This document shows positions 1-26,976 of a DNA stretch of 32,000 bases, in pieces. Position numbers and translations under genes: made by a program. The notes beneath the pieces were generated by a model that was not told the origin of the DNA, searched no databases, and saw only the letters and a program-made list of their open reading frames with translations. This stretch comes from an uncultured bacterium (GTDB taxonomy: Bacteria > Auribacterota > JACPWU01): NCBI GenBank assembly GCA_964640155.1, contig CAZXEQ010000003.1:254189-286188 (forward strand), read 5' to 3'. Numbering within the stretch: the first letter of the stretch is position 1; each line of letters begins with the position of its first letter.

Positions 1-1650
1 ACTTATAAGCTCATATTTTTTAATTGAAAGTTTTTCTCCTGTGCTGATTTCACTTTTAATTTCTTGATTAAAAGCATTTCCTCCCACTCCCACAAATATC
101 ATGACAATGCCTAAATGAACGACATAGCCTCCATAGCGACGAGCATTTTTGCGTGTGAGGTTGATGAGGGCAATCAATACATTCTCTCTTGTAGAGCGTA
201 TTCTTGCCAAAGTTCCTCTATAAAACTCAAGAAAAACAGTGAGTATGACAAAAAATGAAAGAGTGAAACAAGTCCACGCATATAAGTGGTGAATACCCAT
301 AAACCAAATGCTTGCACCCAAAATCATCGAAAGAATAATGGGTAAAGAAAAATTCTTTTTAAGGCTGGCCCAAGATGTTTTGCGCCAGGCTAAGAGAGGA
401 CCTACCCCTGTTAAAAAAAGTAGAATGATGCCAATGGGAATGTTTACTTTATTAAAGAACGGGGCCCCCACTGTTATTTTTTGACCCTGAACCGCTTCAG
501 AAATAATGGGAAATACAGTTCCCCAAAGAACGGCAAAGCAGGCTGTGAGTAATATCCAATTATTAAGTAAAAAACCTGCTTCTCGAGATAGAACAGATTC
601 AAGCGTGTTCTCAGATTTTAGAAAAGAGATTCTTCTAAAAATAACAACAAAACAAAAGACTATAGCGATCATAAGAAAAACAATAAAATAGGAACCAATG
701 GCGGAACGAGCAAAAGAATGTACAGAGCTTACAATGCCACTTCGTGTCAGAAATGTCCCAAAAATAGACAGAATAAATGTTAGTGCGACAAGAATCATAT
801 TCCAAATTTTAAGCATGCCTTTTTTTTCTTGAATGAGGCAAGAGTGCAAGAAAGCTGTGGCTGTGAGCCAGGGCATGAGGGATGCATTTTCGACAGGATC
901 CCAGGCCCAATATCCACCCCAACCGAGTTCTACATAAGCCCATTTGGCGCCCAAGAGAATTCCTGTCCCCAATAAGGCCCAGCTTACAATAGCCCATTTA
1001 CGAGTGGTGCGAATCCATTCTGTACTTTTATTTCGAGTGATGAGTGCTGCCATGGCAAATGCAAAAGGAGCAATCGTTCCAATGTATCCTAAGTAAAGAA
1101 TGGGGGGATGAATCAGCATGGCAAAATATTGCAAGAGCGGATTAAGGCCTTTCCCATCCTCGGGTTGATAGGGATAAATATGACCCTGGCCGTGATCAAC
1201 AACCAGTTCTTTAAAAGGATTGGCTACTACTGTGTTAAGAAGCAGAAAGAAAAAAGAAGTACTCATTAAGATGATGATGATCCAGGGGATTAAACCGATA
1301 TGACGGTGTTTATTTTGGAAAACAATCAGAGCGCTAAAACCCGTAAGAATCCAAGACCAAAAAAGAAGAGACCCTTCTTGTCCTCCCCAAAGGGCGGCCA
1401 GTTTATAAAAAGGGGACATGCTCGAGTTTGAAAATTGGGAGACATATTGAATATGAAAGTTATCGTTTAAAAGCTCTGTCCAAAGAGCAATGATAGCGAG
1501 AGTTACAAAAATCCAAACCATAAAAACAGAATGTCTGGCGCTTTGTATAAGTGAAAATCTTGTTTGTCGAGTTCCCATCCATGCAGCGATGATTGCATAG
1601 GCTGAAAAGGCGAAAGCACAGATGAGAGAGAGATTACCTAGGCTGGACAT
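1..1650 (-). CDS. ccmF: Cytochrome c-type biogenesis protein CcmF (heme lyase), C-terminus runs off the window
   Basis: Absent from the ORF track because it runs off the window. My minus-strand translation from the ATG at 1650-1648 reads MSSLGNLSLICAFAFSAYAIIAAWMG... and stays open to nt 1. It contains the WWD heme-handling motif LGWGGYWAWDPVENASLMPW (about nt 868-930) and RRYGGYVVHLGIVMIFVGVGG (about nt 90-160). The start overlaps the ccmE stop by 17 nt. Confidence 0.9.
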   Translation of the reverse strand, partial: MSSLGNLSLICAFAFSAYAIIAAWMGTRQTRFSLIQSARHSVFMVWIFVTLAIIALWTELLNDNFHIQYVSQFSNSSMSPFYKLAALWGGQEGSLLFWSWILTGFSALIVFQNKHRHIGLIPWIIIILMSTSFFFLLLNTVVANPFKELVVDHGQGHIYPYQPEDGKGLNPLLQYFAMLIHPPILYLGYIGTIAPFAFAMAALITRNKSTEWIRTTRKWAIVSWALLGTGILLGAKWAYVELGWGGYWAWDPVENASLMPWLTATAFLHSCLIQEKKGMLKIWNMILVALTFILSIFGTFLTRSGIVSSVHSFARSAIGSYFIVFLMIAIVFCFVVIFRRISFLKSENTLESVLSREAGFLLNNWILLTACFAVLWGTVFPIISEAVQGQKITVGAPFFNKVNIPIGIILLFLTGVGPLLAWRKTSWASLKKNFSLPIILSMILGASIWFMGIHHLYAWTCFTLSFFVILTVFLEFYRGTLARIRSTRENVLIALINLTRKNARRYGGYVVHLGIVMIFVGVGGNAFNQEIKSEISTGEKLSIKKYELIS

Positions 1651-2128
1651 AGGGCTCGGTAGCTATGGAACTCTTTTTTGTTTTTTGTTCCGCTTCATAT
1701 TTCGATGCACATTTGGCTTGGATTTTTTGTGCTAAGAAGATGCCATTATTATCCAAAGTTCCTTCAACCACAGCTTGACCTCCTTCTTTAAAAGTATCTG
1801 GAACAGGATCTCGGCCAATATAATGGACAGGTAGACTTAAAATTTCCTGCCCCCTGTCGGGGACTGCAGCAGCCTGCCCCCTAGCGGGGACTACAGAAGA
1901 TTGATGTATTGTGAAATAAAGGTCTGTCCCTTTTCTTTGGATAGAACCGTTTGTCACTTCACCTGCAACCCGAACACGTGTGCTTTTACCTTCAGCTTTC
2001 ATTGTTTTCAATTCTGTAATCGTAACGTAATAGGCCTTCCCTTCTTTAAACCCAGAGAAAGCAAGCCAGGTGAGAGTACTAAGAATGATGGAAATCCCGA
2101 TTATGAATTTTAAATGATGTCGTTGCAT
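1634..2128 (-). CDS. ccmE: Cytochrome c maturation heme chaperone CcmE, CxxxY variant
   Basis: 164-aa ORF with an N-terminal membrane anchor (IIGISIILSTLTWLAF) and OB-fold-like body (VRVAGEV..GSI....DLYFTI...VHY.G..PDTFKEGGQAVVEG). The C-terminal motif is AKCASKYEA where canonical CcmE has LAKHDENY. It lies directly upstream of, and overlaps, ccmF. Confidence 0.85.
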   Translation of the reverse strand: MQRHHLKFIIGISIILSTLTWLAFSGFKEGKAYYVTITELKTMKAEGKSTRVRVAGEVTNGSIQRKGTDLYFTIHQSSVVPARGQAAAVPDRGQEILSLPVHYIGRDPVPDTFKEGGQAVVEGTLDNNGIFLAQKIQAKCASKYEAEQKTKKSSIATEPYVQPR

Positions 2129-2289
2129 GATTTTCCTGTTTTTAGCCTTGAAAGTGAGAAGGGCGAATCATAGCACAAAATATATATTCATAGCAAGATT
2201 TTTCGAATCAATATTAATTTTATAACTATTTGATAATAAGCATATTATAAATATTTTGTTCTGCAGGACAGGCCTACTATCTAAAACGG

Positions 2290-2298
2290 TGGTATAAT
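2290..2298 (+). promoter_or_regulatory. Putative extended -10 promoter element TGGTATAAT for the 1108-aa ORF
   Basis: Exact TGnTATAAT match 56 nt upstream of the ATG at 2355, in a 226-nt AT-rich divergent intergenic region. The identical 9-mer lies upstream of the paralogous ORF at 5765-5773. Confidence 0.35.
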
Positions 2299-2354
2299 TA
2301 AAGACGGTTTAGTGAAGTTGATCAACGCAGGGGGGAAGCGAAAGGTTTTAGATA

Positions 2355-5300
2355 ATGCGAAAGCTTCTTGCGTTATTCATTAGCCTAACGTTGTTAGATG
2401 GTGGATTAAGTAAAGAGGTTTTTTCAGATTCTTCTCCCCGAGAAGCTAAACCCATTTACTCCAGTTTTTCCGATTTTCTCCAAAAAGTTAAAGCTGATTT
2501 AGAACCCTTTGTTCAATTTGGTCAAACCTCACTTGCGAATCCTGATAAACCTTTTTTTATTTTATTGCGTGATCTTCATTGTAATTATGAAGCTCAACTT
2601 TCTATTGCTAAAGCGATAGAAGTAGTCGCCAGTTATCAGTTATCAGTCTCCAGTAAAAATAATCCCTTAGTAACTGGCGACCGGCGACTGAGGACTGGTG
2701 ACGGTTTTTTAGTTTTAACCGAAGGTGCTGATGGGCCTGAAGATACAAGTTTGCTGGGAACATTTCCAGATAAAAAAGTAAGGGAAGAAGGATCAAGGGC
2801 ATTCATGAAAGAAGGAAAAATGACGGGTGCAGAGTTTTTGTCGATTACAAGATATGGAGAAATTCCTATTCACATTGAAGGCGTTGAAGATGCAGATTTA
2901 TATATAGAGAATCTTAAAGCTTTTCAGAAAGTTATTGGCAAGAGAGACGATGTTAAAAGCTTTATTGCAAAAACTGAAGAAGTCTTGAATCAAGTGAAGG
3001 AAAAGATTTATTCTCCCGAGTTGGTTGAATTAGAAGCCAAAGAACATCGTTATCAGGAGGGAAAAGAAAATATTGCTGTTTATGGAAAATACATTAGGGA
3101 AATTTATCTGAAATCATTAAGTGATCAGGGGACCCAGTTAGAAGGGTCGTTCAATGTAGATTTCCCTAATCTCGCTCTTTTTCTTGAAATGGCTCAAGCA
3201 CATCAAGAAATTTCAGCAGAAGAGGTAGAGAAGGAAAGAGTTGCTGCGATGGAGACACTGAGTCAAAAACTCCCTAAAGAGGAATTGGCGACACTCATTA
3301 AGCAAGCCCTGGAATATCGATTAGGGAAAGTTACCGGTTCAGATTATTGGAAAAATTTTTTTCAACTCGTACAAAAAAATCTAGATGTAGAAAAATATAA
3401 AACATTAGCAAAATACGCTCAATTAATGGGCAAAGAAAGCCTTCTGAATCATGAAACATTACTAGATGAAATCGAAAAGATAACTCAGAAGAGCAAAGAA
3501 AGATTGATGACTAAACAGGAAGAAAAAGAGGTTGCGAGTTTTAGTAAAAGACTTGAATTGTTAAAAAGGCTTTTAAATCTTGAGATGAGTCGAGATGATC
3601 TTGAGTTTTATCAAGCATGTTCTCAAGAAGCAGATATTGGCGTGATGCTTAAGCAATTAAAAGAATTCTCTGAAAAATGTGGCGTGGATTTTTCAAAGAA
3701 AATTTCAATTGAAAAAGAAGTGCAAAAGATTTCTAGCTTGCAAGCGGCCGCTCAAAAGTTTTATGAATTGGCTTTGAAGCGAGATGAGATGATGGCGGGG
3801 AAGGCTTTAAGGGCAGTGGATAATAAGCTACCCACAATCCACTATCCCCAAATCACTGTTTTAATCACCGGCGGTTTCCATTCTAGTGGTGTTGCCAAAA
3901 TTTTAAAAGAAGCAGGTGCTGGATTTATTATTTTAACTCCTCGAATCAAGGGCCAAATTGAAATGACAAATTATTTTCAATTAATGATGCATGAACAATT
4001 AAGGATGGGAACACTTGATTTTATTCATTTATTTGGACAAAAACTTGCACAAAGATTTCCTGAGATGGTTAGGGGAATGATGGAAGAAGCAATAAATGAA
4101 TTTATTGCTTTGGCTACAAAGCATAAAGTTTCTCAAGAACGACTTGTAGAATGGTTCGATGAATTAGTGCAGACGCATAACGAAGCAACAAGTTTTATCG
4201 CAGAGTTAAAAGCAAAAATTGTCAGTGATGGAACTCCTCCAATATCTCCATCTTCTTCAAAGAATAAACCAACTTTTATTCATACTGGTTTGCAAAAGCA
4301 AATTATTGATGCTCTTGTAGTAAGAGAAAAACCCGAAATGCAAGCGAGTGCTAAAGAACACTTAGAAGTTTTATTTGAACGCCTTAATGCCTCTATAGGC
4401 CCTAGCTGGTTTGCTGATGGAAGGATTTGTGGAAATTTGGCTGGGGTGAGAATTCTTGTTGAATTAATGGAGCAAGCAGACTTAAGTAAACCAGAGAATA
4501 GAGCACAGGAAATATCGAAATTAGCCAGAGAACTTTTTTGTTATCAAGTATTTCAGCAGATTTTGTCACCTATTTTAAGTGATCGTGAGCGAGAAAGTAT
4601 CATAGGTAGTTTGCCAGAAGATTTTAAAGAAAAATATGGACCATGCGAGGCAGAGGAGATTTTAGCCCGATTTTTAACTTCATTAATAACGGGCAAAGAT
4701 CAAGCTTCTTTAGCCCTCGATAGAGGGCAGAATCTTTTCGAAGATGTTTCTTTGGATTTGGAAGAGGCTTTAAGAGGAAAAACTTCTTTAGCAACTATTT
4801 TTGAGTTAATAGATGAAATGGGATCTTCGGAAAGTGATCGTGAACGGGTTGTTCAAGCCTTAGCAGCTCAAGTATCTATGACTGCTGATGAGGTAAAGGC
4901 TCGAGCGAGTCGTGCAGAAAATATAAATCATTTGGTTCAGGCAGGCTCAGTAACTTTAAGAGCTTGGGAAAAAATACAAAAAATAATTGCTTCAAGCTTC
5001 GAAGGTAAAAGACCTCGAGCTTATGTTTTTGAAATTCAAAATGAGCAAGAACTTATAGGACTTGCAGCTGCCTACCGTCAAATGCGATCTGTAGACAAGA
5101 AGGGGCATATCATTTTGAATACTTCTTTGGATAAGGGAGTGATTTTGAAATGGATGAGAACTCAAGGTTTGTCTGAAGAATTATTGGGTAAGGAAATTCA
5201 TGTGATCGATTTAGCTAAAAGAGGAAGGGTTGAGGAGCTGTTGGTGGGTATTCGTGGGTTAGAGGGTGCAACATTTTCTGAAGCTCAGACTGACGATATG

Positions 5301-5681
5301 GTGTTTGTGGTTTCTTCTGAAGAGTCTCGAACGCGTTTTCAGCCCAGGCAATACAAAGTGTTAATAGGACAATTGGGAGAATCAAGTCAATGGTCTCATC
5401 TGGTTCCTGATGCGATGGGAATGGCTTTAATTTTAGGAAGTGTTGATAAGGCTTTTGATAGAAATGAGATGACGAATGAATTAAGAAAGAGATTGGAAGC
5501 CTTTTTAATCGAAATCGCTCGTGAATATTTTACTGGAGAAGAAGATCAAGATAGGGAAGTGCAAGAAATGATTAACGAAATTGCCGAAAATGGGTATTTC
5601 AAAATGCCCCCATGGACCAACCCCATAGATTTAATGATGAATGAACTGGCTGCTCAAGAAATGATCGAGACTTCGGCATAA
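2355..5681 (+). CDS. Large secreted hypothetical protein (paralog A): shared N-terminal head plus unique C-terminal half
   Basis: 1108-aa uninterrupted ORF with a Sec-type signal peptide (MRKLLALFISLTLLDGGLSKE). Residues about 55-625 align clearly with the next ORF (KPFFILLRDLHCNYEAQ, FLVLTEGADGPEDTS, GAEFLSITRYGEIPIHIEGVEDADLYIENLKAFQ, TIHYPQITVLITGGFHSSGVAKILKEAGAGFIILTP). I recognise no named family with certainty. Confidence 0.85.
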   Translation: MRKLLALFISLTLLDGGLSKEVFSDSSPREAKPIYSSFSDFLQKVKADLEPFVQFGQTSLANPDKPFFILLRDLHCNYEAQLSIAKAIEVVASYQLSVSSKNNPLVTGDRRLRTGDGFLVLTEGADGPEDTSLLGTFPDKKVREEGSRAFMKEGKMTGAEFLSITRYGEIPIHIEGVEDADLYIENLKAFQKVIGKRDDVKSFIAKTEEVLNQVKEKIYSPELVELEAKEHRYQEGKENIAVYGKYIREIYLKSLSDQGTQLEGSFNVDFPNLALFLEMAQAHQEISAEEVEKERVAAMETLSQKLPKEELATLIKQALEYRLGKVTGSDYWKNFFQLVQKNLDVEKYKTLAKYAQLMGKESLLNHETLLDEIEKITQKSKERLMTKQEEKEVASFSKRLELLKRLLNLEMSRDDLEFYQACSQEADIGVMLKQLKEFSEKCGVDFSKKISIEKEVQKISSLQAAAQKFYELALKRDEMMAGKALRAVDNKLPTIHYPQITVLITGGFHSSGVAKILKEAGAGFIILTPRIKGQIEMTNYFQLMMHEQLRMGTLDFIHLFGQKLAQRFPEMVRGMMEEAINEFIALATKHKVSQERLVEWFDELVQTHNEATSFIAELKAKIVSDGTPPISPSSSKNKPTFIHTGLQKQIIDALVVREKPEMQASAKEHLEVLFERLNASIGPSWFADGRICGNLAGVRILVELMEQADLSKPENRAQEISKLARELFCYQVFQQILSPILSDRERESIIGSLPEDFKEKYGPCEAEEILARFLTSLITGKDQASLALDRGQNLFEDVSLDLEEALRGKTSLATIFELIDEMGSSESDRERVVQALAAQVSMTADEVKARASRAENINHLVQAGSVTLRAWEKIQKIIASSFEGKRPRAYVFEIQNEQELIGLAAAYRQMRSVDKKGHIILNTSLDKGVILKWMRTQGLSEELLGKEIHVIDLAKRGRVEELLVGIRGLEGATFSEAQTDDMVFVVSSEESRTRFQPRQYKVLIGQLGESSQWSHLVPDAMGMALILGSVDKAFDRNEMTNELRKRLEAFLIEIAREYFTGEEDQDREVQEMINEIAENGYFKMPPWTNPIDLMMNELAAQEMIETSA

Positions 5682-5694
5682 GCACTTCTTATGC
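5676..5694 (+). terminator. Weak stem-loop overlapping the stop codon of paralog A
   Basis: GCATAAG-cactt-CTTATGC forms a 7-bp stem and 5-nt loop, followed by AT-rich sequence without a clean U-tract. Confidence 0.2.
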
Positions 5695-5764
5695 ATATCT
5701 TAATATATTCTACAAGAACAAGTTAAATAATAATTGATATGTGCTTCCAAAATCATCATTTTTA

Positions 5765-5773
5765 TGGTATAAT
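5765..5773 (+). promoter_or_regulatory. Putative extended -10 promoter element TGGTATAAT for the giant ORF
   Basis: Exact TGnTATAAT match 64 nt upstream of the ATG at 5838. It is the same 9-mer found upstream of paralog A. Confidence 0.35.
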
Positions 5774-5837
5774 GAACCTATTATTGGGTGATCGAATCTA
5801 CTTGTGTCTGTGATGCTTAGATCTTTTGGGGAAATCC

Positions 5838-8800
5838 ATGAGTTTATTGAAAAAAATTATCATTTGTTTGCTCATTTTAGGTCAATTGGACTTAGGATGG
5901 GCTCAAGAGCTTTCCAAGTCAAAAAGAATATTAAAGTCAGAATTATCTCCAGTAAAAACTTTTATTAAAGAGCTTCAGAAAAAGCTCACTCCTTTCGTCA
6001 TCTTTGGGGAACAATTTTTCCATTCAACTTCAGACAAGCCCTTTTTTATTTTATTTCGAGATCTTCATTGTAATTACGAAGCACAGCAGAATATTGTGAA
6101 GACTTTAGAAATTATTTTGACGCAAAACGCTGTACACAATACGCACGACAATTTTTTAGTTTTAACCGAAGGTGCAGATGGGCCAGAAGACACAAGCTTC
6201 TTAGGAAAATTTCCAGACAAAAAGGTTCGGGAAGAAGCGTCTCAAAAATTTATGAAAGAAGGAAAAATAACCGGAGCAGAATTTTTATCGATTGCGAAGT
6301 ATGGAGAAATCCCTATTCAGATTGAAGGTATTGAAGATGCAGATTTGTATGTTGAGAATCTTAAAGCTTTTCAAGCTGTGATGGGGAAGAAACAACAAAC
6401 AGATGCTTTTGTTGAAGCAGCTGAATCCGTGATGGAAGAAATAAAGGTCAAAACCTTTTCTCAAAAGCTTTTAGAACTGGATGTGAAGGAAAATGAATTT
6501 GAGAAAGACTCGATTAAATTAGAGGAGTACGTGAGCTATCTTGGGAATCAGAATATACATTCTCTTGAGAAACTAGAGCAGTATCCAAACCTTTCTATTT
6601 TTTTTGAGTTGATATCCCATCAAGAAAGTATTTCTTCTGAGAGGGTTGAAGAAGAAAAAAATAAAGTTATAGAACAATTAAGCAAAAAACTACCTAAAGA
6701 AGAATTAAATCTTTTGATTCAACAAAGCTTGAAGTTAAGATTAGGAAAGGTTGCCCAGGAAGATTATTTTGGGAGTTTAGAGGAGCTGACTAAGAAAAAT
6801 CTTAAGTCGGAGAGATACCCTAGTCTCATCACCTATATCAGTATCGTGAAGAAGCAGGCAGAATTAAATCATGAATTATTGCTTGATGAAATCTATAAGC
6901 TTTCTGAAAAATTAAAGCAAGCCTTGGCGACGACAAGAGTTGAAAAAGAACTACTAACTCTTGATAAAAATTTGACTATTTTAAAACAGATGTTTCGATT
7001 AGAGATGACACGTGAGAATTTGGAGTTTGTGAAAGAGCATCGACAAATTTACCAAGTCGAAAGCATTATTGAACAGTTAAAGAAGTGCGTTTTGAAATCC
7101 AAAATTATCTTTCCTAAAGCATTTAATTCCCCTAGGCAAATTCAAGATCTCTCAGAAATATTTCAAGCGAGTGAACTTTTTTATGATTTAGCATTGAAGA
7201 GAGATGAAGTGATGGCTAGAAAGGCTTTAAAAGCAGTGGATAGTAATTGGAGGATAGGGGATAGTGACTTAAAGGAGATTATTAATAAAAACGATAAACT
7301 ATCCACAATCCACTATCCACAAATTCCTGTTTTGATCACTGGCGGCTTCCACTCTGACGGTATCACCAAAATTTTAAAAGAAGCAGGAGCAGGTTTTGTT
7401 GTTCTTACTCCAAAAGTAAATCAATCTCATGATATAAAAAATTATTTATCGCTCATGATGGATCAACGAATTCGTATTACGGCCTTAGATTTCTTTCATA
7501 TTTTTGGAAGAAAACTGGCGGAACGGTTCCCTGGGATGTCTCATGGCTTGTTGAAAGAGATCATTAGGGACTTTGTTGAATTAGGAAAGCAATATCAAAT
7601 TAATCCATATCAGCTGCACGCTTGGCTCGATCAAATTCAGGATGTAGACAAAACTATTTTAGATGAGATTCGCAAGATAATAGTTATTGAAAACCGTCCG
7701 GGACTTCCAAGGTGGGTAATGACTGTTGAAACAATAGCGGTATTGGTATTACGATTAAGTTCTATTACTGCCAATTTGACAGCGGATGTACTTACAGAAT
7801 TAGATAGAAAAGGGCGTCTCGACAGAAGGTTATATGAAGAAGTGGAGGAAAAATTTGTTTGGAGGCAAGAAGAAGTTCCAAAAATTAAGGTTGGTCTAGC
7901 AGCTTTGGCTGATTTTATTTATTTAGATCTTTTATGTGCTAAAGAGAGAGAAATGGATCAAGAACAAATGCTTCAATTAGTTTATCAATCTGCTCAAGCA
8001 AGGATTAAGGTATTTAGCTTGCTGCGTCCTCGTATGAAACAGGTTTTATTGGATAATAAGGTTAATTATTTTTTAGGCATTCAAAATATTTTAATAGTTA
8101 TTGATGAGCTTGAAGCTCATCGAGATGATTACGCTCGAATTGTCCAAGAATATTATAAAGAATATTTTTCTCGAGAAGGATTAAAAGGTTTTTTGGAATC
8201 TCCTCAGGGCTATTTTGGATCAGGTCGCGCTAATCTTTGGGGAAAAAGTCAGTTTCAAAAGTGGGCACGAGCGGAGCAGAGAATTATGTCAGATAAAACT
8301 TCATCAAAAACTGTTTCAACAGAAGGATCTTTAGGTATTAAGGGCGAAGAAGAGGTTATTTCTGATGCTAATCCGCTCTTGTCTATCTCTTATGTAGGAC
8401 ATGCTATGGAAGTTAAGAGACAAGTGAATCCTGATAATAAACCTTTAGTAGCTGTGTATGCTGGAGCAGGAACAGATATTTCTTCTTTTCTGCTAACTAC
8501 AAATGCGACGGAAGGATATTTTTTAGATCGCTCATCATTTGATATTAGAACTTTAAAGGATTTAGTTGAAGATGAAGAAAGTTGGGATAGCATTGATCTT
8601 GATGATCCATATATACGATCGAAGAGTACGATTGGGTATGGAGGATATGGATATTTAACTTTTAATCAGTTTCCTTTAAGAATTGTCCAGGAATTAAAAA
8701 GTATAGGTGTTAAACGAGAGTCTATTAAAATAGATATTCAGGATGGACGCGTAAATATTCAATTTTTATGGACTTACCCGGGAACTACCCAAGAGAGAAT

Positions 8801-11800
8801 CTATTCAATTACCTATATTTGCATGTCGGCCCACAGCATAGAGGATTCACTTCAGAGTGTATTTCTTAATAAGATTTTGGAACAAGGAATTGATATTTAT
8901 TATGAGCGAGCAAGTTTGGACATTCCTAAAGATTATGCCCTTTTTATGCCTGCAATAGGTCGAGCTCTGAAGGTAGGAGGATATGTCATTAGTAGTGATA
9001 CATGCCATAATGTAGACAAGAGTCCAAAGCGATTTTTGGAATCAAACGAGATTAAATTTGAAGCTATTTCTTCGACATTACTCTCAGAATGGTGGGCGAG
9101 TATGATGCCTACAGATGATTTTTATGGATCTAAAATGGGTGTATTGTGCAAAAAATCAGATTCTCGGTCTAATGATCAGATAGGTCTCATGGGAAAATTA
9201 TTTTTTGATGCATCTGGAGAACAAATTGCAACAGGGCCGATTACAGCGACAGAGTCAAATGGTGTTGTAACTTTTAAGACGATGGAAGGTGCAGAACTTT
9301 ATGATAATAAAGGAAACCCTGCACAAGTAAGAGTGCTGCGACAGGAACAATCACTCATATTTTCGTCTGTCATTCCCGCAAGTTTCAAGCGGGAATCTAG
9401 AGAAACTGGATCCCCGACAGGTACACTCGGGGATGACAACCAAATGGTTGTATCGGAGACATTAACGCCAGGTTTTGAAACTTATATTCGAGAAACACTT
9501 AGTAAGTCTGTGAGAGTTATTGCAGATGACTCTTCGGTGAAAGGGTTTTCAAATGGAGAAGTTTTATATTTAAGAGAGGATCTTTTAAAAGATCCCATTG
9601 CCCTGTTTCATGAGCTGGGTGAGGGATATTTTAAAAAGAATCCAAAAGAACTTCCTGGTCGAGACAATCCTAAAACGGTTGCTCTCAATCCGCATACTTA
9701 TCTAAGGGGTGTTGGGAAAGAGATTGGAAATCTTCCTGATATTGAAAAATATTCGGACCCTGCCAAACTCATTGAATACATAAAATCAAAACTTTCCCCC
9801 CATCGACAAAATGAAGCTGAATTTGCATTAATTCAATGGAATGCAAGTCAAGGTCGTACAGGTCGAGCTCTTTTTTATGGGCTACAAGATCTTGTGTTTG
9901 GAGAAGAAGCAAATCGTATTTTGAGTGAGAAAGTAGGCAAAAAGAAAGTTTTACCTCGACCCCCTTTGGATAAATTAAAAGCAGGTTTATCTGCTGTAGC
10001 AGACATTGTCTATTTAGATCTTCTCTATGCTAAAGAAAGAGGCTTGGATCAGGAACAAATGATTCAGTTGGCCTATCAATCCGCTCAAGCGCGAATTAAA
10101 GCATTTAGTGCATTTGGTAAATGGGCAAGAGATTTTCAATATGGCCCAAATCCTTATCAATATGTTGTGTTTCGTTATGTCGTAGATGTCATTGATGAAC
10201 TCGAAGCCCATCGAGATGAGTATGCACAGATGGTTAAGGAATATTATGAAGAGTTTTTTGAGAAAAAAGGGATTAATGGACTTGTTGGAAACACTACTAT
10301 GTATTATGGGATTTATAAACCACCATTGATAGGAAAGAGTAGATTTAGAGATTGGGGAAAAGCTGATGAAAAAATAAGATCTACGAGACAATTAGGATCT
10401 CAAACTATTTCAAAAGGTCCTCTCAATGTAGATAGAGATGCTATTCCTGAGGATACAAATGCTGTTTTGTCTCCTGCTTATATTGCATATTCCATGGAAC
10501 TCAAAAAACAAGTCAATCCTGATAATAGGCCCTTGGTGGCTGTTTATGGGGGAGCAGGATCTGACATTTCTTCATTTCTCTTGTCTACGAATGCTACTGA
10601 AGGCTATTTCGTCGAAGGAGCGCCTGTAGATGCTAAGAAGTTGAAGAAATGGATAGAGGAAGATTGGGGAAAAGTTGAATTAAATGATGGATATATGCAA
10701 CGCAAAAGATTTAGAGGTTTTGGAGAAAGTAGAGATTTAGGGAAATCTTTGGAGTATCGGATTGCTCAAGAATTGAAAGCGATGAGAGTTAACCCTAAAA
10801 CTATTCACATTTCTGTGAAAGATGTGGAGGACAGAAGAACATTGTTTATGGGACGTCATGATCCTAATCCTAAGAAGTATGTAAAAATTGAGTTTGATTG
10901 GACATATCCGGGAGTACAAGAAAGCAAGTATTCGATTACTTATATTCCTGAGAGTATTTTTGACATTGCTACCTATCACCGTGAAATAGAAAGGTCATTG
11001 TTAGATAAAGTATTGGGCAGGGGTATAGACGTTTATTATCAGAGAGCAGGAGAGGATATTGCAGAGATATATGAACATTTAATGCCTGTTTTAGGAAAGG
11101 TGCTTCGTCCGGGGGGATGTATCGTCAGTGATAATTGCAAGAACACGAAAATGACCGAGAGAGAAAGTGGAATCGTTGATCCAAAACCTTTCTTGGAGCA
11201 GAATGGAGATAAGTTTGAAGTTGTTCCTCCGACACTATTGATGGATTGGTGGACTGTCATCATGCCCAGCTGTACGCCTTATGGATCAAAGATGAATGTT
11301 TTGCGTAAACAACCTCATGAAATAAGGGTAGAGGATTTTCTCAAAATTATTGAAAAGCGTATTTTGGATGAGCAAAGACCTTTATCTGTTGAGGTATTAA
11401 AAATACTGATTATAGATTTTTTAACACTTTCTTATCAGTATGATTTTGATATTAGCCCCATATCACTTTGGCTTAAAGGATGGGCAAATAAGCGAGTAGC
11501 CAGAGAAGTTGCTATTTCCATAGATGAGGATAAAACTATTGCTTTTCTGAGAGAGCAATTATCTGTTAGAGCCCAGCACATAGGAGATAATTCAAAACCT
11601 TTTTCGCAAAATTTATTTGGAGACTCGATTAAAAAAATATTTGAGTCAAGTTTAACTATTTTTGAAGAAGCTTTGGAAGACGCCTCTCGTGAGGATATTT
11701 CTTACTCTTCTTTTCTACGCGAGGTTAGAAAAGAAAAAAAATCTCGAATTTCAGGGGGGCTTGCGGCTTTGGCCGACTTTGTGTGGATAGATTTGAAATG

Positions 11801-13169
11801 GGCTGAAATAGCTTGTGGATACTCTCTTAGAGGTGAGGAATTAACGCAAGCAGCCCAAGAATTTGTAGTTTCTAGGATTCAAGGATTAATGTCTATAACA
11901 GAAGATTTGCAAAAAACAGCTTTAGGGTTTATTGATGCACCTTCTCCAGAATTACAAGGGCTCAATGACATGTTGCAAATTATTGAATATATTAAAAGTC
12001 ATCAAGAAGAATGTATACATGCGGTGGTTAGGTATCTCGAGGAAGAGTATGCAAACGATGATGGAATTACCCCTGATTTAAATTCTATGACCCGTAGACA
12101 TATTTACGGAGTAAGTGGGGCTAGAGATTGGAAAGGTTGGGAAAATGTGTTACAGAATAGAGGTGTTGCATTAAGTTCTAGATATATACCTCGATTTTTA
12201 AAAACTAAAGAAGTCGATGTACCTTCTTATCCAGTCCTAAGTAAGCCTCATGTAGGTTATGCCATGGCTGTTAAAGAAATGGTTAATCCTCATAATGAAG
12301 ATTTAACAGTTATTTATGGCGCAGCAGGTGCTGATATTTCTTGCTTTCTACTATCCACTAATGCAACGAATGGGTATTTTATTGATCCTATCATTCCTGA
12401 TCCTCAGAAATTTAAAGAAATCCTTGTGGATGACTGGGAAAATTTAAACTTAAATGATTCATATATGAAAACAAAAAGGGAGAGAGGTTTTGCAAATATG
12501 GTGGATCTTTCAGAAAGAAAGGTCGTGTCTCTGAGACTCGCTCAAGAGTTGAAAGCAATGGGTGTAGAGAAAGAGTCGATAAAAGTCCAACATAACTCTA
12601 GGAATAAGAGACATATGCGTATTTCTTTTGACTGGATTTATCCTGGAACCAATCAGAAAAGAAATTATGTCATTACGTATATTGCTTGCCCTGTTCAAGA
12701 AATGGCTAGCCCAACAAAAAGAGATCCTGAAATTGCAAAACTTTTAGATGGAGAAAATGTGGATATTTATTATCAGAGAGCAGGCCTTGATATCCCAAAG
12801 CTTTATGAATCATTTTTACCTGCTTTATCTTCAGGTGTAAAACCAGGAGGATTTCTTGTTACGAATGATTATGAGTCAGGAGGAAGAGATTCTCGTATCT
12901 TTTTTGCAAGAGCAAATGAGCTGGGTTTTGAGGAACAATATCCTTCTTATGCTGCAAAATGGTGGGAAATGATGATTCCTTATGAATCTCCTTATGGTTG
13001 GAAAATGCATATTCGTAGAAAAATGAAAGAGTCTGCTGATTATAGGATAACTCTTACAGATGTTAAAACAATTGGATCGGAGAAAGGGGAAATTAATTTA
13101 ACAGTAGGAGTTCCTGCACATCCACATGCTTTTCATGTTTCACCGAGCTTTGTAGAGCAGGCTGCATAG
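5838..13169 (+). CDS. Giant secreted hypothetical protein (paralog B): shared N-terminal head plus three tandem methyltransferase-like modules
   Basis: The ORF track opens this ORF at a TTG (5826). The ATG at 5838 gives MSLLKKIIICLLILGQLDLGWAQE, a typical signal peptide. About 2443 aa are uninterrupted. The N-terminal roughly 620 aa are paralogous to ORF 2355-5681, and the rest contains three internally repeated modules (listed separately). Confidence 0.85.
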   Translation: MSLLKKIIICLLILGQLDLGWAQELSKSKRILKSELSPVKTFIKELQKKLTPFVIFGEQFFHSTSDKPFFILFRDLHCNYEAQQNIVKTLEIILTQNAVHNTHDNFLVLTEGADGPEDTSFLGKFPDKKVREEASQKFMKEGKITGAEFLSIAKYGEIPIQIEGIEDADLYVENLKAFQAVMGKKQQTDAFVEAAESVMEEIKVKTFSQKLLELDVKENEFEKDSIKLEEYVSYLGNQNIHSLEKLEQYPNLSIFFELISHQESISSERVEEEKNKVIEQLSKKLPKEELNLLIQQSLKLRLGKVAQEDYFGSLEELTKKNLKSERYPSLITYISIVKKQAELNHELLLDEIYKLSEKLKQALATTRVEKELLTLDKNLTILKQMFRLEMTRENLEFVKEHRQIYQVESIIEQLKKCVLKSKIIFPKAFNSPRQIQDLSEIFQASELFYDLALKRDEVMARKALKAVDSNWRIGDSDLKEIINKNDKLSTIHYPQIPVLITGGFHSDGITKILKEAGAGFVVLTPKVNQSHDIKNYLSLMMDQRIRITALDFFHIFGRKLAERFPGMSHGLLKEIIRDFVELGKQYQINPYQLHAWLDQIQDVDKTILDEIRKIIVIENRPGLPRWVMTVETIAVLVLRLSSITANLTADVLTELDRKGRLDRRLYEEVEEKFVWRQEEVPKIKVGLAALADFIYLDLLCAKEREMDQEQMLQLVYQSAQARIKVFSLLRPRMKQVLLDNKVNYFLGIQNILIVIDELEAHRDDYARIVQEYYKEYFSREGLKGFLESPQGYFGSGRANLWGKSQFQKWARAEQRIMSDKTSSKTVSTEGSLGIKGEEEVISDANPLLSISYVGHAMEVKRQVNPDNKPLVAVYAGAGTDISSFLLTTNATEGYFLDRSSFDIRTLKDLVEDEESWDSIDLDDPYIRSKSTIGYGGYGYLTFNQFPLRIVQELKSIGVKRESIKIDIQDGRVNIQFLWTYPGTTQERIYSITYICMSAHSIEDSLQSVFLNKILEQGIDIYYERASLDIPKDYALFMPAIGRALKVGGYVISSDTCHNVDKSPKRFLESNEIKFEAISSTLLSEWWASMMPTDDFYGSKMGVLCKKSDSRSNDQIGLMGKLFFDASGEQIATGPITATESNGVVTFKTMEGAELYDNKGNPAQVRVLRQEQSLIFSSVIPASFKRESRETGSPTGTLGDDNQMVVSETLTPGFETYIRETLSKSVRVIADDSSVKGFSNGEVLYLREDLLKDPIALFHELGEGYFKKNPKELPGRDNPKTVALNPHTYLRGVGKEIGNLPDIEKYSDPAKLIEYIKSKLSPHRQNEAEFALIQWNASQGRTGRALFYGLQDLVFGEEANRILSEKVGKKKVLPRPPLDKLKAGLSAVADIVYLDLLYAKERGLDQEQMIQLAYQSAQARIKAFSAFGKWARDFQYGPNPYQYVVFRYVVDVIDELEAHRDEYAQMVKEYYEEFFEKKGINGLVGNTTMYYGIYKPPLIGKSRFRDWGKADEKIRSTRQLGSQTISKGPLNVDRDAIPEDTNAVLSPAYIAYSMELKKQVNPDNRPLVAVYGGAGSDISSFLLSTNATEGYFVEGAPVDAKKLKKWIEEDWGKVELNDGYMQRKRFRGFGESRDLGKSLEYRIAQELKAMRVNPKTIHISVKDVEDRRTLFMGRHDPNPKKYVKIEFDWTYPGVQESKYSITYIPESIFDIATYHREIERSLLDKVLGRGIDVYYQRAGEDIAEIYEHLMPVLGKVLRPGGCIVSDNCKNTKMTERESGIVDPKPFLEQNGDKFEVVPPTLLMDWWTVIMPSCTPYGSKMNVLRKQPHEIRVEDFLKIIEKRILDEQRPLSVEVLKILIIDFLTLSYQYDFDISPISLWLKGWANKRVAREVAISIDEDKTIAFLREQLSVRAQHIGDNSKPFSQNLFGDSIKKIFESSLTIFEEALEDASREDISYSSFLREVRKEKKSRISGGLAALADFVWIDLKWAEIACGYSLRGEELTQAAQEFVVSRIQGLMSITEDLQKTALGFIDAPSPELQGLNDMLQIIEYIKSHQEECIHAVVRYLEEEYANDDGITPDLNSMTRRHIYGVSGARDWKGWENVLQNRGVALSSRYIPRFLKTKEVDVPSYPVLSKPHVGYAMAVKEMVNPHNEDLTVIYGAAGADISCFLLSTNATNGYFIDPIIPDPQKFKEILVDDWENLNLNDSYMKTKRERGFANMVDLSERKVVSLRLAQELKAMGVEKESIKVQHNSRNKRHMRISFDWIYPGTNQKRNYVITYIACPVQEMASPTKRDPEIAKLLDGENVDIYYQRAGLDIPKLYESFLPALSSGVKPGGFLVTNDYESGGRDSRIFFARANELGFEEQYPSYAAKWWEMMIPYESPYGWKMHIRRKMKESADYRITLTDVKTIGSEKGEINLTVGVPAHPHAFHVSPSFVEQAA
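7893..9155 (+). repeat. Intragenic protein-level repeat, module 1 of 3 (helical lead-in plus Rossmann/SAM-MTase-like core)
   Basis: Motif series: GLAALADFIYLDLLCAKEREMDQEQMLQLVYQSAQARIKVFS ... VIDELEAHRDDYARIVQEYYKEYF ... VNPDNKPLVAVYAGAGTDISSFLLTTNATEGYFLD ... FLWTYPGTTQERIYSITYI ... GIDIYYERAS ... LKVGGYVISSD ... WWASMMP..FYGSKMGVLCKK. The same ordered series recurs in modules 2 and 3. Confidence 0.75.
9984..11312 (+). repeat. Intragenic protein-level repeat, module 2 of 3
   Basis: Motif series: GLSAVADIVYLDLLYAKERGLDQEQMIQLAYQSAQARIKAFS ... VIDELEAHRDEYAQMVKEYYEEFF ... VNPDNRPLVAVYGGAGSDISSFLLSTNATEGYFVE ... FDWTYPGVQESKYSITYI ... GIDVYYQRAG ... LRPGGCIVSDN ... DWWTVIMP..PYGSKMNVLRKQ. Confidence 0.75.
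11757..13022 (+). repeat. Intragenic protein-level repeat, module 3 of 3 (most diverged)
   Basis: Motif series: GLAALADFVWIDLKWAE ... IIEYIKSHQEECIHAVVRYLEEEY ... VNPHNEDLTVIYGAAGADISCFLLSTNATNGYFID ... FDWIYPGTNQKRNYVITYI ... VDIYYQRAG ... VKPGGFLVTND ... KWWEMMIP..PYGWKMHIRRK. Confidence 0.7.
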
Positions 13170-13222
13170 GCTGTTTCTCTTTTGAGTTGAATATCTTGTT
13201 TTAACAAGTATAATCCCTGTCT

Positions 13223-13486
13223 ATGTTGATCGAAAAATTTAAGTTAGCTGTTGAAGAAATTTTGAAAAGACGATGGGTGGGGGAGTTTGATTTGGCAGAT
13301 TTAATCATACAGCCCTATGGGTGCAGTCTTGTATTTAAAAGTACAAAAGATAATTATCGGTTTTCTCCGACGATTATTTCAAATAAATTGATTTTAGCTA
13401 TTCTGGTTGATAATTCTGTAAATGCTCGTCAAGCATTAGAAAAAGAGATTGAAACAGCTTTTCAAAAATATGTAATTAGTGGATAA
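13223..13486 (+). CDS. Hypothetical small protein (87 aa)
   Basis: ATG-initiated ORF filling the gap between the giant ORF and folE. Its stop lies 2 nt before the folE ATG, and a TATAAT hexamer sits at 13209-13214. I recognise no motif. Confidence 0.45.
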
Positions 13487-13487
13487 C

Positions 13488-14054
13488 ATGTCCAAAGACT
13501 CTATTGAATCTAATATTGAAGCAATTTTGAAATATATTGGAGAAGATCCAACACGTCAAGGTCTTGCCAAAACGCCTCACCGAGTTCAAAAATCTTTTGA
13601 GTATTTGACATCAGGTTATTCAAAGAATATCAACGAAGTTTTGAATGGTGCTGTTTTTGATGAAGCTTATGATGAGATGGTGACGGTAAAAGATATTGAG
13701 ATTTTTAGTCTTTGTGAACATCATCTTTTGCCTTTTTATGGGAAATGTCATGTCTCTTATATTCCCAATGGGAAAATAATTGGTTTAAGTAAAATTCCTC
13801 GTTTGGTTGAAGTTTTTTCCAGGCGTCTTCAGGTACAGGAAAGACTCACTACACAAATAGCCAATTGTATTAACGACACACTGAAACCCCGAGGGGTTGG
13901 TGTTGTTGTAGAAGCCTTCCATTTGTGCATGGCGATGCGTGGAGTTGAAAAACAGCATGCCTTTGCTGTAACAAGTTCTATGCTTGGAGCCTTTCGGTCA
14001 GATCGTGGGACTCGTATGGAATTTTTGAACTTCATTAGTCCTAAAGGACGATAA
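13488..14054 (+). CDS. folE: GTP cyclohydrolase I (FolE type)
   Basis: Strong family motifs: [77 protein letters not shown]. The track opens at a GTG (13479). I prefer the ATG at 13488, but either start is possible. Confidence 0.93.
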
Positions 14055-14110
14055 CGAGGCTGTTGTTCTCTACAGCGGTCTTCATTTCCTTTTAATCCTC
14101 ATCCATAAAA

Positions 14111-14147
14111 TAATCATAACTATAACCACTAGAATTAGTTATGATTA
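14111..14147. repeat. Perfect 11-bp inverted repeat (TAATCATAACT ... AGTTATGATTA) with a 15-nt spacer
   Basis: Read directly from the sequence, 57 nt downstream of the folE stop. It is AT-rich, so it could be a weak terminator hairpin or a protein-binding site. Confidence 0.4.
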
Positions 14148-14203
14148 AAATGCTCTCATATTTGACAAATGAAGATTCATGTGCGAAGTTATAGACAAGA
14201 GGT

Positions 14204-14539
14204 TTGGAATGGGGGAAAACGAATGCAATGAAAAGCACGTTTTTGCAAGGTTCTAGATGGCAAGATGTTATAGTCCCCCATAGTGGGCAAAGAGTTGCAA
14301 GGAGCTTTAAAACTATGTATCAGCTATATCAGTCATTTTTAAGAGAACTTGTGCTGAAAGGCTATTCGGTGGTTAACGTGGCCGATAGCAAAGAAGCTGC
14401 GCAACATATTGAAAGCACAAAACGCTGCATGATTCTTTCTCCTGCAATGATTGCTGTAGAAGATAAAGAAGGTCTTCTCACGCGCATTTCTGGAGTTCAT
14501 CCCAAGCCTGTTATTATCTCCATTCAGCCTCGAGATTAG
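14204..14539 (+). CDS. Hypothetical protein (weak call)
   Basis: 111-aa ORF opened at a non-ATG codon, with an internal ATG at about 14228. It has no recognisable motif, only a vague CheY-like flavour (GYSVVNVADSKEAAQHI). It fills an otherwise non-coding gap. Confidence 0.3.
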   Translation: MEWGKTNAMKSTFLQGSRWQDVIVPHSGQRVARSFKTMYQLYQSFLRELVLKGYSVVNVADSKEAAQHIESTKRCMILSPAMIAVEDKEGLLTRISGVHPKPVIISIQPRD

Positions 14540-14631
14540 ACTTCCAAAGTACATTCTTGATCTCTTGTTTTCCCCTTGCTTTCATGCGATAATGAATACA
14601 CCGGTGGTTCTTTGCAGCAGTGGAGGAGGCC

Positions 14632-15255
14632 ATGTCCAAGCTCAAAAAGGGGTCATTAGGATTTACTGTCAATGAGATGGTGATGGTTCTGGCGACCATT
14701 CTTTTCCTGGCCACAATTTTGCTACCCAGTCTTCTGAAGGCTAGAGAATCAGGCCGTTCAACCAAATGTGTTGGGCATTTAAAAAACCTGATTCAGGCGG
14801 TACAATTATATGTGAGTGATGAATCTTTGGGTCGTTTCCCTGATTTGAATCCAGATACAGATTTAAAGGATATGATGAGTCTTTTACTCCCTTATCTTGG
14901 AAGCTCTACCTCGATTACAACAGTCAAACCAGAATTACAAGTCTTTCGATGTCCATCCAATGACAATGCAAATAATTTCTCAAATCGACAAGACACTTAC
15001 GGAAATCAAACGGATTATAGTTTTAATACCAATTTAGATAATCAAGTTGCGCAAACCCGTGTTGGAAGTCCCCAGTGGGTTTCTGTTTTATGGGATTACC
15101 CATCATTTCCTACTTCTTCCAAAGCACACATTCATAGAGGCGGTACCAATATTGCTTTTTACGATGGACATGTTCAGTGGTTTTCTAGAGATCAGATGAT
15201 GGAGTCACACGCGCCTGACACTGGAACTCAATACAATACATGGGGAATTAATTAA
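14632..15255 (+). CDS. Prepilin-type N-terminal cleavage/methylation domain protein with C-terminal H-X9-DG motif (DUF1559-like)
   Basis: The ATG at 14632 is preceded by GGAGGAGG (the track opens at GTG 14620). N-terminus is KKGSLGFTVNEMVMVLATILFLATILLPSL (G|FTxxE pilin-like), then KCVGHLKNLIQAVQLY, then C-terminal HRGGTNIAFYDGHVQWFS, an exact H-X9-DG spacing. Confidence 0.85.
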   Translation: MSKLKKGSLGFTVNEMVMVLATILFLATILLPSLLKARESGRSTKCVGHLKNLIQAVQLYVSDESLGRFPDLNPDTDLKDMMSLLLPYLGSSTSITTVKPELQVFRCPSNDNANNFSNRQDTYGNQTDYSFNTNLDNQVAQTRVGSPQWVSVLWDYPSFPTSSKAHIHRGGTNIAFYDGHVQWFSRDQMMESHAPDTGTQYNTWGIN

Positions 15256-15903
15256 ATGTTAAAGGCAGACAGACGCAGGTTTAAGAGAAATCAAGGTTTG
15301 ACCATGATCGAAATGGTTGTGGTTTTTGCGGGGCTGATCATTTTAATTGGTCTTTTGGCCCCTACGCTTAAAAAAGTGAGAGATACAGGTAAAAGGGTCA
15401 AATGCTTAAGTAATTTAAAGCAATTGGGGGTTGCCATGGATATGTATATCCAAGACGACCGTCAAGGCCGTTTTCCTGGTTGGAGTGGGAATTGTAATTT
15501 GGTTGAAAATTTACCAAATCTTCTAAACGCTTATTTAGGGCAAGAAGATACGGATGCTTTAACGAGTGGGGAATTGAGTCAATTCCGTTGTCCTGCAAAT
15601 CAGTATACTGGTAATCTTTCTCAACGACAGGATGCATATGGAAATCAAGTGGACTATGAGCTTAATTGTAATTTGAGAGGACAATCTGTTGTTGCTGAAG
15701 TAGGTAATGATGCTATCGCTGTTATATTAGCGGATTTTCCAGCTTATCCAGCAAGTGCTTCCAATCAGGTTCATTTAACGGGAACAAACCTTCTTTTTGT
15801 AGACGGTCATGCCCAGTGGTATAGCAGAAGCAAACTTAACTCTGCATGGCCTAATGAGACGCAATATCCTGGGACTGCTTACTACAACTGGGGAACACAG
15901 TAA
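15256..15903 (+). CDS. Prepilin-type N-terminal cleavage/methylation domain protein with C-terminal H-X9-DG motif (tandem paralog)
   Basis: Motifs are GLTMIEMVVVFAGLIILIGLLAPTL, KCLSNLKQLGVAMDMY and HLTGTNLLFVDGHAQWYS (H-X9-DG). The ORF starts immediately after the previous stop (TAA-ATG). It shares FRCP.N....N.S.RQD.YGNQ.DY with the upstream paralog. Confidence 0.85.
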   Translation: MLKADRRRFKRNQGLTMIEMVVVFAGLIILIGLLAPTLKKVRDTGKRVKCLSNLKQLGVAMDMYIQDDRQGRFPGWSGNCNLVENLPNLLNAYLGQEDTDALTSGELSQFRCPANQYTGNLSQRQDAYGNQVDYELNCNLRGQSVVAEVGNDAIAVILADFPAYPASASNQVHLTGTNLLFVDGHAQWYSRSKLNSAWPNETQYPGTAYYNWGTQ

Positions 15904-16139: not shown

Positions 16140-16214
16140 CCTCCAGACAAAAACATTGCTGCTCAAAATTATTTGTGATATTTTCATTTGCCTTGATGCA
16201 TTTTGAATGCTCAG

Positions 16215-18536: not shown

Positions 18537-18539
18537 AAT

Positions 18540-25108: not shown

Positions 25109-25206
25109 GAGTGTATCTATCGGGAATCTATTTTTATAAATGATGTGAATGATAATGAATGCTTAGTTCATAGCTCTTCATTTTGTTTTCTGATAATCTT
25201 TCCTTC

Positions 25207-26262: not shown

Positions 26263-26265
26263 AAT

Positions 26266-26973: not shown

Positions 26974-26976
26974 TGC

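Follow-up and report, generated by a model that had tools for sequence, protein, structure and literature searches.

Two adjacent long modular proteins with a shared N-terminal head and different C-terminal cargo belong to a protein family that spans the Omnitrophota

Long and giant modular proteins are a poorly understood hallmark of the Omnitrophota. They carry signal peptides or transmembrane helices and line up methyltransferase, PGM/PMM, isomerase and other domains in strings, and their N-terminal regions are mostly without identifiable domains (West-Roberts et al., 2023, 10.1101/2023.11.21.568195; 2026 preprint, 10.64898/2026.06.07.730766). The 46 giants of West-Roberts et al. ('Archaeovorins') are mostly at least 30 kaa (thousand amino acids) long (10.1101/2023.11.21.568195), and a 916-protein catalogue of long and giant Omnitrophota proteins reaches 147 kaa (10.64898/2026.06.07.730766). 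Seymour et al. (2023) counted open reading frames (ORFs) of more than 20 kb and noted that such ORFs are poorly annotated (PMC10066038). Here we analyze two adjacent ORFs, A and B, in a stretch of 32,000 nucleotides of contig CAZXEQ010000003.1 (the window, in whose numbering positions are given), which encode small members of this phenomenon. A and B resemble the giants in phylum, in an N-terminal signal peptide, in enzyme-like domain strings (in the family, methyltransferases, PGM/PMM and glucose-phosphate isomerase) and in a predicted extracytoplasmic location. They differ from them in size (1.1 kaa for A, 2.4 kaa for B, and at most about 5.6 kaa seen in their family), in the multiple transmembrane helices of the giants, none of which is convincing in A or B, and in being defined by a conserved N-terminal domain, the head; no N-terminal C39 or S8 peptidase was observed. 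The combination that marks the 'Archaeovorins' (a very long ORF, multiple transmembrane helices and many enzyme domains) is thus found in neither A nor B.

The pair was first pointed out by a model that saw only the letters of the window and its translated ORFs (the sequence-only reading). Its observation is correct in every checkable detail, and its interpretation is supported in part. It had described two ORFs on the same strand that share a head of about 620 amino acids and then diverge, and indeed BLASTP aligns A1-628 with B4-621 at 44% identity (E 1e-163) and finds no significant match after ELKAKIV in A and EIRKIIV in B. A and B are therefore adjacent, old paralogues. They are probably co-transcribed; promoter and terminator scans gave results at chance level. 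ORF B can start at an ATG at 5838 or at a TTG at 5826. The exact sequences of both ORFs are present in a public protein library (P0003 for A, P0004 for B), and neither protein could be assigned to a named family, Pfam and NCBIfam giving nothing above threshold, in agreement with the sequence-only reading.

A constant head with variable C-termini, as had been proposed from the two ORFs, was recovered at a very large scale. An exhaustive HMMER search with a four-sequence head profile, in which counts refer to cluster representatives, matched 8,841 representatives at E ≤ 1e-3, 7,678 at 1e-10 and 5,295 at 1e-30. Among the matches listed, the head occupies residues ~1-550 and is always N-terminal (150/150), and the proteins measure 421-5,568 amino acids with a median of 2,483 (8 below 700 and 44 of at least 3,000). 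A word-indexed search with the head had returned two relatives only, P0001 (915 amino acids, with a third, unrelated tail) and P0002 (partial, from an Omnitrophica metagenome-assembled genome, MAG); since the exhaustive profile search gave thousands, this low number is an artefact of sensitivity. The head is 520-620 amino acids long across the family.

When one genome was scanned for each GTDB species, 130 relatives were recovered, and we read the best 80 of these 130 loci. Nearly all derive from Candidatus Omnitrophota MAGs, with few bearing other labels, and together they hold 82 head ORFs, about 20 of them stand-alone forms of 500-560 amino acids and the others 700 to more than 3,900 amino acids long, many being cut by contig ends. 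Several MAGs carry two to four copies of the head. In 23/80 loci the head gene is immediately preceded by another homologous giant ORF in the same orientation (among them L004, L011, L016, L033, L044, L046, L051 and L065); these upstream ORFs are often longer than 3,100 amino acids and cut by the limit of the flank. The upstream giant of L011, whose N-terminus is in view, has a head of its own, and L074 and L079 likewise hold two head genes, so that a tandem arrangement like that of A and B is typical of the family. The family thus spans the phylum Omnitrophota, and its head is a constant N-terminal module in front of an interchangeable region: the head occurs with many different tails, mostly in Omnitrophota.

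The region behind the head consists largely of metabolic enzymes. Pfam detects PGM/PMM domains in 13/15 and 9/14 sampled giants (22/29 in all), and further cargo includes phosphoglycerate kinase (PGK; 5e-74), PGI/GPI, UTP-glucose-1-phosphate uridylyltransferase (UDPGP), phosphofructokinase (PFK), transaldolase, NTP-transferase, CofD, PRK and GHMP kinase. The giants upstream of head genes contribute an ARMT1-like phosphatase (L011) and an APH kinase (L009). This survey shows the family to combine an unvarying head with exchangeable enzyme modules, mostly of the sugar-phosphate type. It bears directly on the proposal of the sequence-only reading that the pair belongs to a polymorphic effector or toxin family, in which the head would be a trafficking domain and the C-termini toxins against competitors or hosts. 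Such a pair would explain a constant N-terminal domain joined to many unrelated C-termini and the presence of signal peptides, and it would suit both the host-dependent or predatory life attributed to Omnitrophota (PMC10066038) and the occurrence of TIKI domains in MARTX effectors (PMC6254334). However, no toxin family was found by Pfam in A, B or 29 relatives, where the cargo is of sugar-phosphate-enzyme and methyltransferase-fold type; no small immunity-like gene is adjacent, B being followed by an ORF of 87 amino acids without a Pfam match and by folE; genes for type I, V, VI or VII secretion systems do not adjoin the pair; and the conserved residues of the head look catalytic, unlike those of a secretion tag. 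We consider a toxin pair highly unlikely.

We favor instead, as a probable reading, that A and B belong to an Omnitrophota-wide family of long modular proteins that are exported by Sec and combine a hydrolase-like head with interchangeable enzyme cargo. The N-terminal signal peptide would direct the protein into the Sec pathway, and the head would be an extracytoplasmic hydrolase (a protease or an esterase) that may either process or tether its own polypeptide or attack a substrate in the envelope or in a host. What follows the head would be exchangeable enzymatic cargo, made up of sugar-phosphate enzymes in most relatives, of three modules with a helical linker and a methyltransferase fold in B, and of the 480-amino-acid tail in A. 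Of this reading, the analysis shows the paralogy, the size of the family, the N-terminal place of the head, the taxonomic range, the diversity of the cargo and the methyltransferase fold, whereas export, TIKI-like catalysis by the head and the targets of the cargo are inferred.

The N-termini of A and B show the pattern of Sec-type signal peptides that had been noticed in them: a basic n-region is followed by a hydrophobic core of 11 residues and by small residues at -3/-1 (GLS before K in A, GWA before Q in B), and no lipobox was found at either N-terminus. A simple heuristic (an n-region with K/R, a hydrophobic core of 7-15 residues and small residues at -3/-1) is satisfied by 137/151 family representatives, most of which have an AFA-type site. 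As this family-wide succession of basic residues, short hydrophobic stretch and AxA site is that of a cleaved signal, A and B are most likely exported by Sec. Two points weigh against this part of our reading. The evidence for export is drawn from sequence, and, as the main difficulty, the SAM (S-adenosylmethionine)-, ATP- or UTP-using cargo would have no obvious supply of cofactors outside the cytoplasm, a problem also raised in the literature on Omnitrophota giants (10.1101/2023.11.21.568195). The lack of such a supply leaves two readings, namely that the proteins are cytoplasmic scaffolds tethered to the membrane or that they are delivered into a host cell.

In the first of these, proteins of the A/B type would be multi-enzyme scaffolds whose N-terminal segment is uncleaved or mispredicted, with the head as a membrane-proximal organizer and the bulk of the protein remaining with SAM, ATP and sugar phosphates. 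The cargo of the family is indeed cytoplasmic in type (PGM/PMM, PGK, PFK, PGI, UDPGP, methyltransferase), and West-Roberts et al. voice the same doubt about localization. A hydrophobicity scan found no convincing internal transmembrane helix in A or B, and in B two stretches of borderline hydrophobicity follow closely on the head, at amino acids 627-645 (7716-7772) and 683-701 (7884-7940), with Kyte-Doolittle values of ~1.6-1.7; if these were true transmembrane helices, the methyltransferase modules would face the cytoplasm. What speaks against tethering is the form of the N-terminus: basic residues precede a hydrophobic region of only 11-15 residues, the AxA-type site that follows in most members marks a cleaved Sec signal with N-in/C-out topology, and a further transmembrane-like segment occurs in only 31/151 members. 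We regard a tethered cytoplasmic scaffold as rather unlikely.

For the hydrolase-like character of the head in our preferred reading, the conserved residues are the starting point. Across 79 aligned heads, 18 columns are invariant (in A numbering G56, D73, H75, C76, A80, Q81, E123, G124, G127, E160, G176, Y183, Y354, Y470, R476, G506, G507 and H509), and the full set of catalytic-type residues is kept in both A and B. In 233 sequences examined, the His of D-x-H-C lies 28 residues before the Glu of E-G-x-x-G in 217/230, the Arg of (K)R-D lies 28 residues before the His of G-G-F-H in 207/226, and the first acidic residue is Asp in 229/230. The invariant layout D-x-H..28..E...R..28..GGFH matches the order and spacing of the 2His/2Glu plus Arg set of active TIKI/EreA/ChaN hydrolases. 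In RRSP this set comprises E3900-x-H3902, E3930 (+28), R4001 and H4030 (+29), and in Bcr135 it includes H85 and E113 (+28), both proteins having a parallel-sheet core (PMC6254334). The AlphaFold2 (AF2) model of A is poor (predicted local distance difference test, pLDDT, 54 overall and 55-88 in the head); in it each head motif lies at the end of a β-strand, and E160/G176 are separated from R476 by an all-helical insertion of ~300 residues. On the heads of A, B and the 79 relatives, every Pfam and NCBIfam model stays below its threshold. The sole recurring enzyme-type family in scans of the single members is PF04187 ('Haem-binding uptake, Tiki superfamily, ChaN'), in 27/79 with a best E of 0.01. 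It also ranks first in Pfam for the family consensus, whose residues 357-446 align with profile positions 115-204 (E 2e-4), and for two head constructs from which the insertion was deleted (E 0.004-0.005).

Compared with the TIKI/EreA/ChaN/TraB superfamily as a whole (PF04187, PF05139, PF01963; RRSP, Bcr135, EreB), the head thus shares the order and spacing of acid-x-His, Glu (+28), Arg and His (+28/29), the position of the motif residues at the ends of predicted parallel strands and a top, sub-threshold match to PF04187; TIKI domains are, in addition, known with varied appended domains. Unlike known members, it has no significant profile-profile or structural match, has Asp for the first Glu and an invariant Cys after the first His, and combines a ~300-amino-acid helical insertion between its halves with fusion to kilo-residue enzyme strings. 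Several results weigh against the assignment. The PF04187 match stays below the gathering score (21.9 versus 27.7 bits) and covers the C-terminal half of the head only. When the head was aligned by hhalign with a 7-sequence Ere-family alignment, built from erythromycin-esterase genes retrieved from plasmids, H75 paired with EreB H46 and E123 with E74, but at Prob 0.3-1.2%; with the core only, the alignment runs through all motifs (E 0.044), yet the reversed-template control scores better. No hhalign match was obtained between the head and E. coli YbaP (TraB family), and Foldseek with the full-length AF2 model of A, itself poor, returned neither a significant match nor a TIKI structure. The Asp in place of the first Glu is a further departure. 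The TIKI assignment is consequently not statistically established; a TIKI/ChaN-like hydrolase is the best-supported hypothesis for the head, and from its motifs we judge it likely.

A different role for the head would be that of a non-catalytic ligand-binding or anchoring module, comparable to the haem-binding ChaN of PF04187, which fixes the enzyme string to the envelope. That the ChaN family is the only Pfam family touched and that stand-alone forms of ~520 amino acids exist would fit such a role. The acid-x-His, Glu, Arg and His of active TIKI proteins are nevertheless all kept, invariant in 79 heads and with fixed spacing in more than 200, which argues for catalysis and makes an inert anchor very doubtful. 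A metallophosphoesterase-like interpretation of D-x-H...GGFH was dropped, as the intervening GDxxDR and GNHE motifs are absent. A profile search of the PDB with the head gave nothing apart from a centrin-like match to the helical insertion; within this insertion, positions 2950-3280 (A amino acids ~199-309) weakly resemble centrin EF-hand pairs (E 0.003) and the Pfam family PAH_ZNF598 (58/79 members, best 2e-6).

MARTX toxins and other modular secreted multi-effectors offer a partial parallel to the exported, hydrolase-headed proteins that we propose: they too are single exported polypeptides with several enzymatic modules, a content that varies between homologues and a TIKI-type domain. A and B differ from them by the lack of RTX repeats, of a CPD autoprocessing domain and of nearby type I secretion genes, and in the head family the TIKI-like domain is the constant N-terminal part and not a variable effector. 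In its furthest extension our reading would make the head an unrecognized branch of the TIKI superfamily that defines a phylum-wide class (~9,000 sequence clusters) of Sec-exported 'polyenzymes', by which host-dependent Omnitrophota export cytoplasmic-type enzymes (sugar-phosphate mutases, isomerases and kinases and, at the A-B locus, three methyltransferases) to the periplasm, the surface or the host or prey. The head would then be a built-in processing protease, like the MARTX CPD, by which modules are released or activated, and a conserved dipeptide at the C-terminus, [SA][LVA]-COOH, would be a second recognition signal. We put this forward tentatively and regard it as unlikely in its full form.

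The cargo of B consists of three repeat modules, as had been recognized from its translation; they are mutually 35-47% identical, and a weaker similarity extends back into the helical end of the B head. Each comprises a helical part of ~200 amino acids followed by an α/β core of ~280 amino acids with the motifs VY(G/A)(G/A)AGxD-ISxFLLxTNATxGYF and LKPGG; the Gly-rich loop is present in all three and is followed by GYF(L/V/I)(D/E/D). For module 1, AF2 gave a model of moderate confidence (pLDDT 60, core 70-90). Foldseek with this model against the PDB returned class I SAM methyltransferases for all of the top 50 matches (e.g., NNMT and FAM86A; best E 4.4e-4, with low template modelling scores of 0.24/0.39). 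A PDB search with a profile of seven cores, those of B and of four metagenomic relatives, gave SAM methyltransferases in 8/10 matches, the best being PfPMT (E 0.0029). The modules share with these enzymes (NNMT 2IIP, PfPMT 4R6W, FAM86A 8FZB) a Rossmann-like fold, the VYGGAGxD loop, LKPGG and the strand order, but they are only 12-14% identical to solved structures, match no Pfam model at threshold and, in B, form three tandem copies, each with a ~200-amino-acid helical N-terminal extension. No curated methyltransferase model exceeded its threshold; Pfam yielded only PF07757 (E 0.13), and nothing on the separate modules. The assignment to a class I SAM-methyltransferase fold is sound.

The modules were not matched in a word-indexed search and are absent from the 82 head ORFs of the loci and from the 151 representatives. 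Four relatives of the core (27-37% identity) came from a scan of metagenomes; they lie inside headless giant ORFs of 1,521-5,186 amino acids (L083-L086, Table 1) with HATPase_c or metallo-beta-lactamase domains, which indicates that the module moves between different families of long proteins. The acidic position of strand 2 is A/G/S in 3/4 of these metagenomic homologues, and since this residue is not conserved, SAM binding and activity of the B modules are putative.

The tail of A is an orphan. Its amino acids ~716-1102 (4500-5660) are homologous only to the C-terminus of P0025 (3,518 amino acids, from the same sub-branch), with no other relative in Pfam, the PDB or the library; a word-indexed search was also empty, and the PDB profile search gave only chance-level fragments of botulinum toxin. 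The tail is absent from all 82 head ORFs of the loci, its structure prediction remains below pLDDT 50, and the tail of P0001 is unrelated to it and to the insert of B. A further point to set against our reading concerns the C-terminus of the family. About half of the family ends in a domain of ~130 amino acids, for which a hidden Markov model (HMM) found 120 domains, 116/120 at the very C-terminus, with the consensus end ...ILPRIxPVDxxEAxEAYKAAxxALxSL-COOH; by HMM and hhalign this domain is missing from A and B, and also from P0001 and P0025. The idea that the A tail is a diverged copy of it was rejected by the same two methods, the terminal dipeptide alone matching. An [SA][LVA]-COOH end is found in 102/123 long members versus 43/242 neighboring ORFs (18%) and 0/8 stand-alone heads, and the ends of A (-SA, 5658-5678) and B (-AA, 13146-13166) fit this rule despite the missing domain. 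The dipeptide may be a C-terminal recognition signal.

The sequence-only reading had presented the pair as a candidate undescribed secreted system. This does not hold for long multi-enzyme proteins of Omnitrophota, which have already been reported (10.1101/2023.11.21.568195; 10.64898/2026.06.07.730766), but it does for the head domain, which is described in neither of these works; in the literature searched, no paper linked Omnitrophota to TIKI/ChaN domains. Three aspects appear to be new: that a single conserved head defines a very large subclass of proteins of 1-5.5 kaa, that this head bears a TIKI-like catalytic signature, as judged from its motifs, and that an orphan triple methyltransferase-fold array (B) and an orphan tail (A) serve as cargo. 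They provide a concrete handle on these proteins, namely one conserved, unannotated domain of ~520 amino acids on thousands of proteins, with fixed candidate catalytic residues, a testable link to a hydrolase superfamily and a catalogue of cargo. They also bring into focus the puzzle that enzymes dependent on SAM, ATP or UTP are found behind Sec signal peptides. With 1.1 kaa (A) and 2.4 kaa (B), the two proteins lend themselves far better to expression and study than giants of 30-150 kaa.

Table 1. Coordinates of the features of ORFs A and B in the window and of metagenomic ORFs (numbered within their own loci) with a B-type core. aa, amino acids.
Feature	Position	Strand	Description
ORF A	2355..5681	+	1108 aa; signal peptide, head and orphan tail; C-terminus -SA-COOH
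A putative Sec signal peptide	2355..2420	+	aa 1-~22; MRK / LLALFISLTLL / DGGLS; from hydrophobicity heuristic and family-wide pattern
A head	2355..4229	+	aa 1-625; candidate catalytic D73 (2571-2573), H75 (2577-2579), E123 (2721-2723), R476 (3780-3782), H509 (3879-3881)
A head helical insertion	2892..3824	+	~310 aa (aa ~180-490), all-helical, splits the alpha/beta core; from AF2 secondary structure
A tail	4230..5678	+	aa 626-1108, ~480 aa; orphan
ORF B	5838..13169	+	2443 aa from ATG; signal peptide, head and 3 modules; C-terminus -AA-COOH
B putative Sec signal peptide	5838..5903	+	MSLLKK / IIICLLILGQL / DLGWA, followed by QE after the putative site; from hydrophobicity heuristic and sequence
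B head	5838..7697	+	aa 1-620; candidate D75 (6060-6062), H77 (6066-6068), E111 (6168-6170), R455 (7200-7202), H505 (7350-7352)
B module 1	7755..9209	+	aa ~640-1124; helical region and methyltransferase-fold core (core 8355-9209)
B unique insert between modules 1 and 2	9210..9845	+	~210 aa; contains FHELGEGYF; weak relatives in P0029 and P0042 only
B module 2	9846..11369	+	aa ~1337-1844; core 10446-11369
B module 3	11661..13166	+	aa ~1942-2413; core 12210-13076
Metagenomic giant ORFs with B-type core	L083:2064-9215; L084:6858-11420; L085:1008-16565; L086:46-7719		

The pair is flanked by ccmH-ccmF-ccmE on one side (ccmE Pfam 9.5e-22) and by folE on the other (2.5e-75), and its G+C content of 0.34-0.39 compares with 0.33-0.43 in the rest of the window, in line with the housekeeping flanks and unremarkable base composition that had been described. 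DNA repeats within 1500-14600 are confined to paralogous stretches, the strongest being 244 nt between the two heads at 81% identity. No flanking repeat and no mobility gene were found at the borders of the pair, and the sole tRNA lies 15 kb away. The suggestion that the pair is an accessory insertion is not supported by these borders, by the composition or by the phylum-wide family, whose genes often stand in tandem, and a mobile island was rejected for want of a border tRNA, a flanking repeat and a shift in composition.

Two small ORFs without a Pfam match lie beside folE, at 13223-13486 (87 amino acids; overlapping the start of folE by 8 nt) and 14204-14539 (111 amino acids). At 14620-15903, 1.5 kb beyond the end of B, stand two tandem DUF1559 genes (PVC-type, prepilin-like); genes for type II secretion and pilins have been reported close to the giant genes of Omnitrophota. 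Further downstream, an ABC sugar transporter (16203-19370) consists of a solute-binding protein fused to a permease and of a second permease, and homologues of it also follow head genes in 8 other loci. It is succeeded by a GH35/42 beta-galactosidase (20149-22551) and a GH94 phosphorylase (22548-25043), and the transporter and glycoside hydrolase (GH) genes fit a carbohydrate theme. Three compact genes at 25183-28074, encoding a type III polyketide synthase (chalcone-synthase-like), a SAM methyltransferase and a FAD-dependent monooxygenase, look like a small secondary-metabolite cluster. On the minus strand, 28529-30472 encodes a DEAD-box helicase with a C-terminal DSHCT (NUC185) domain, similar to Ski2/Mtr4/HelY.

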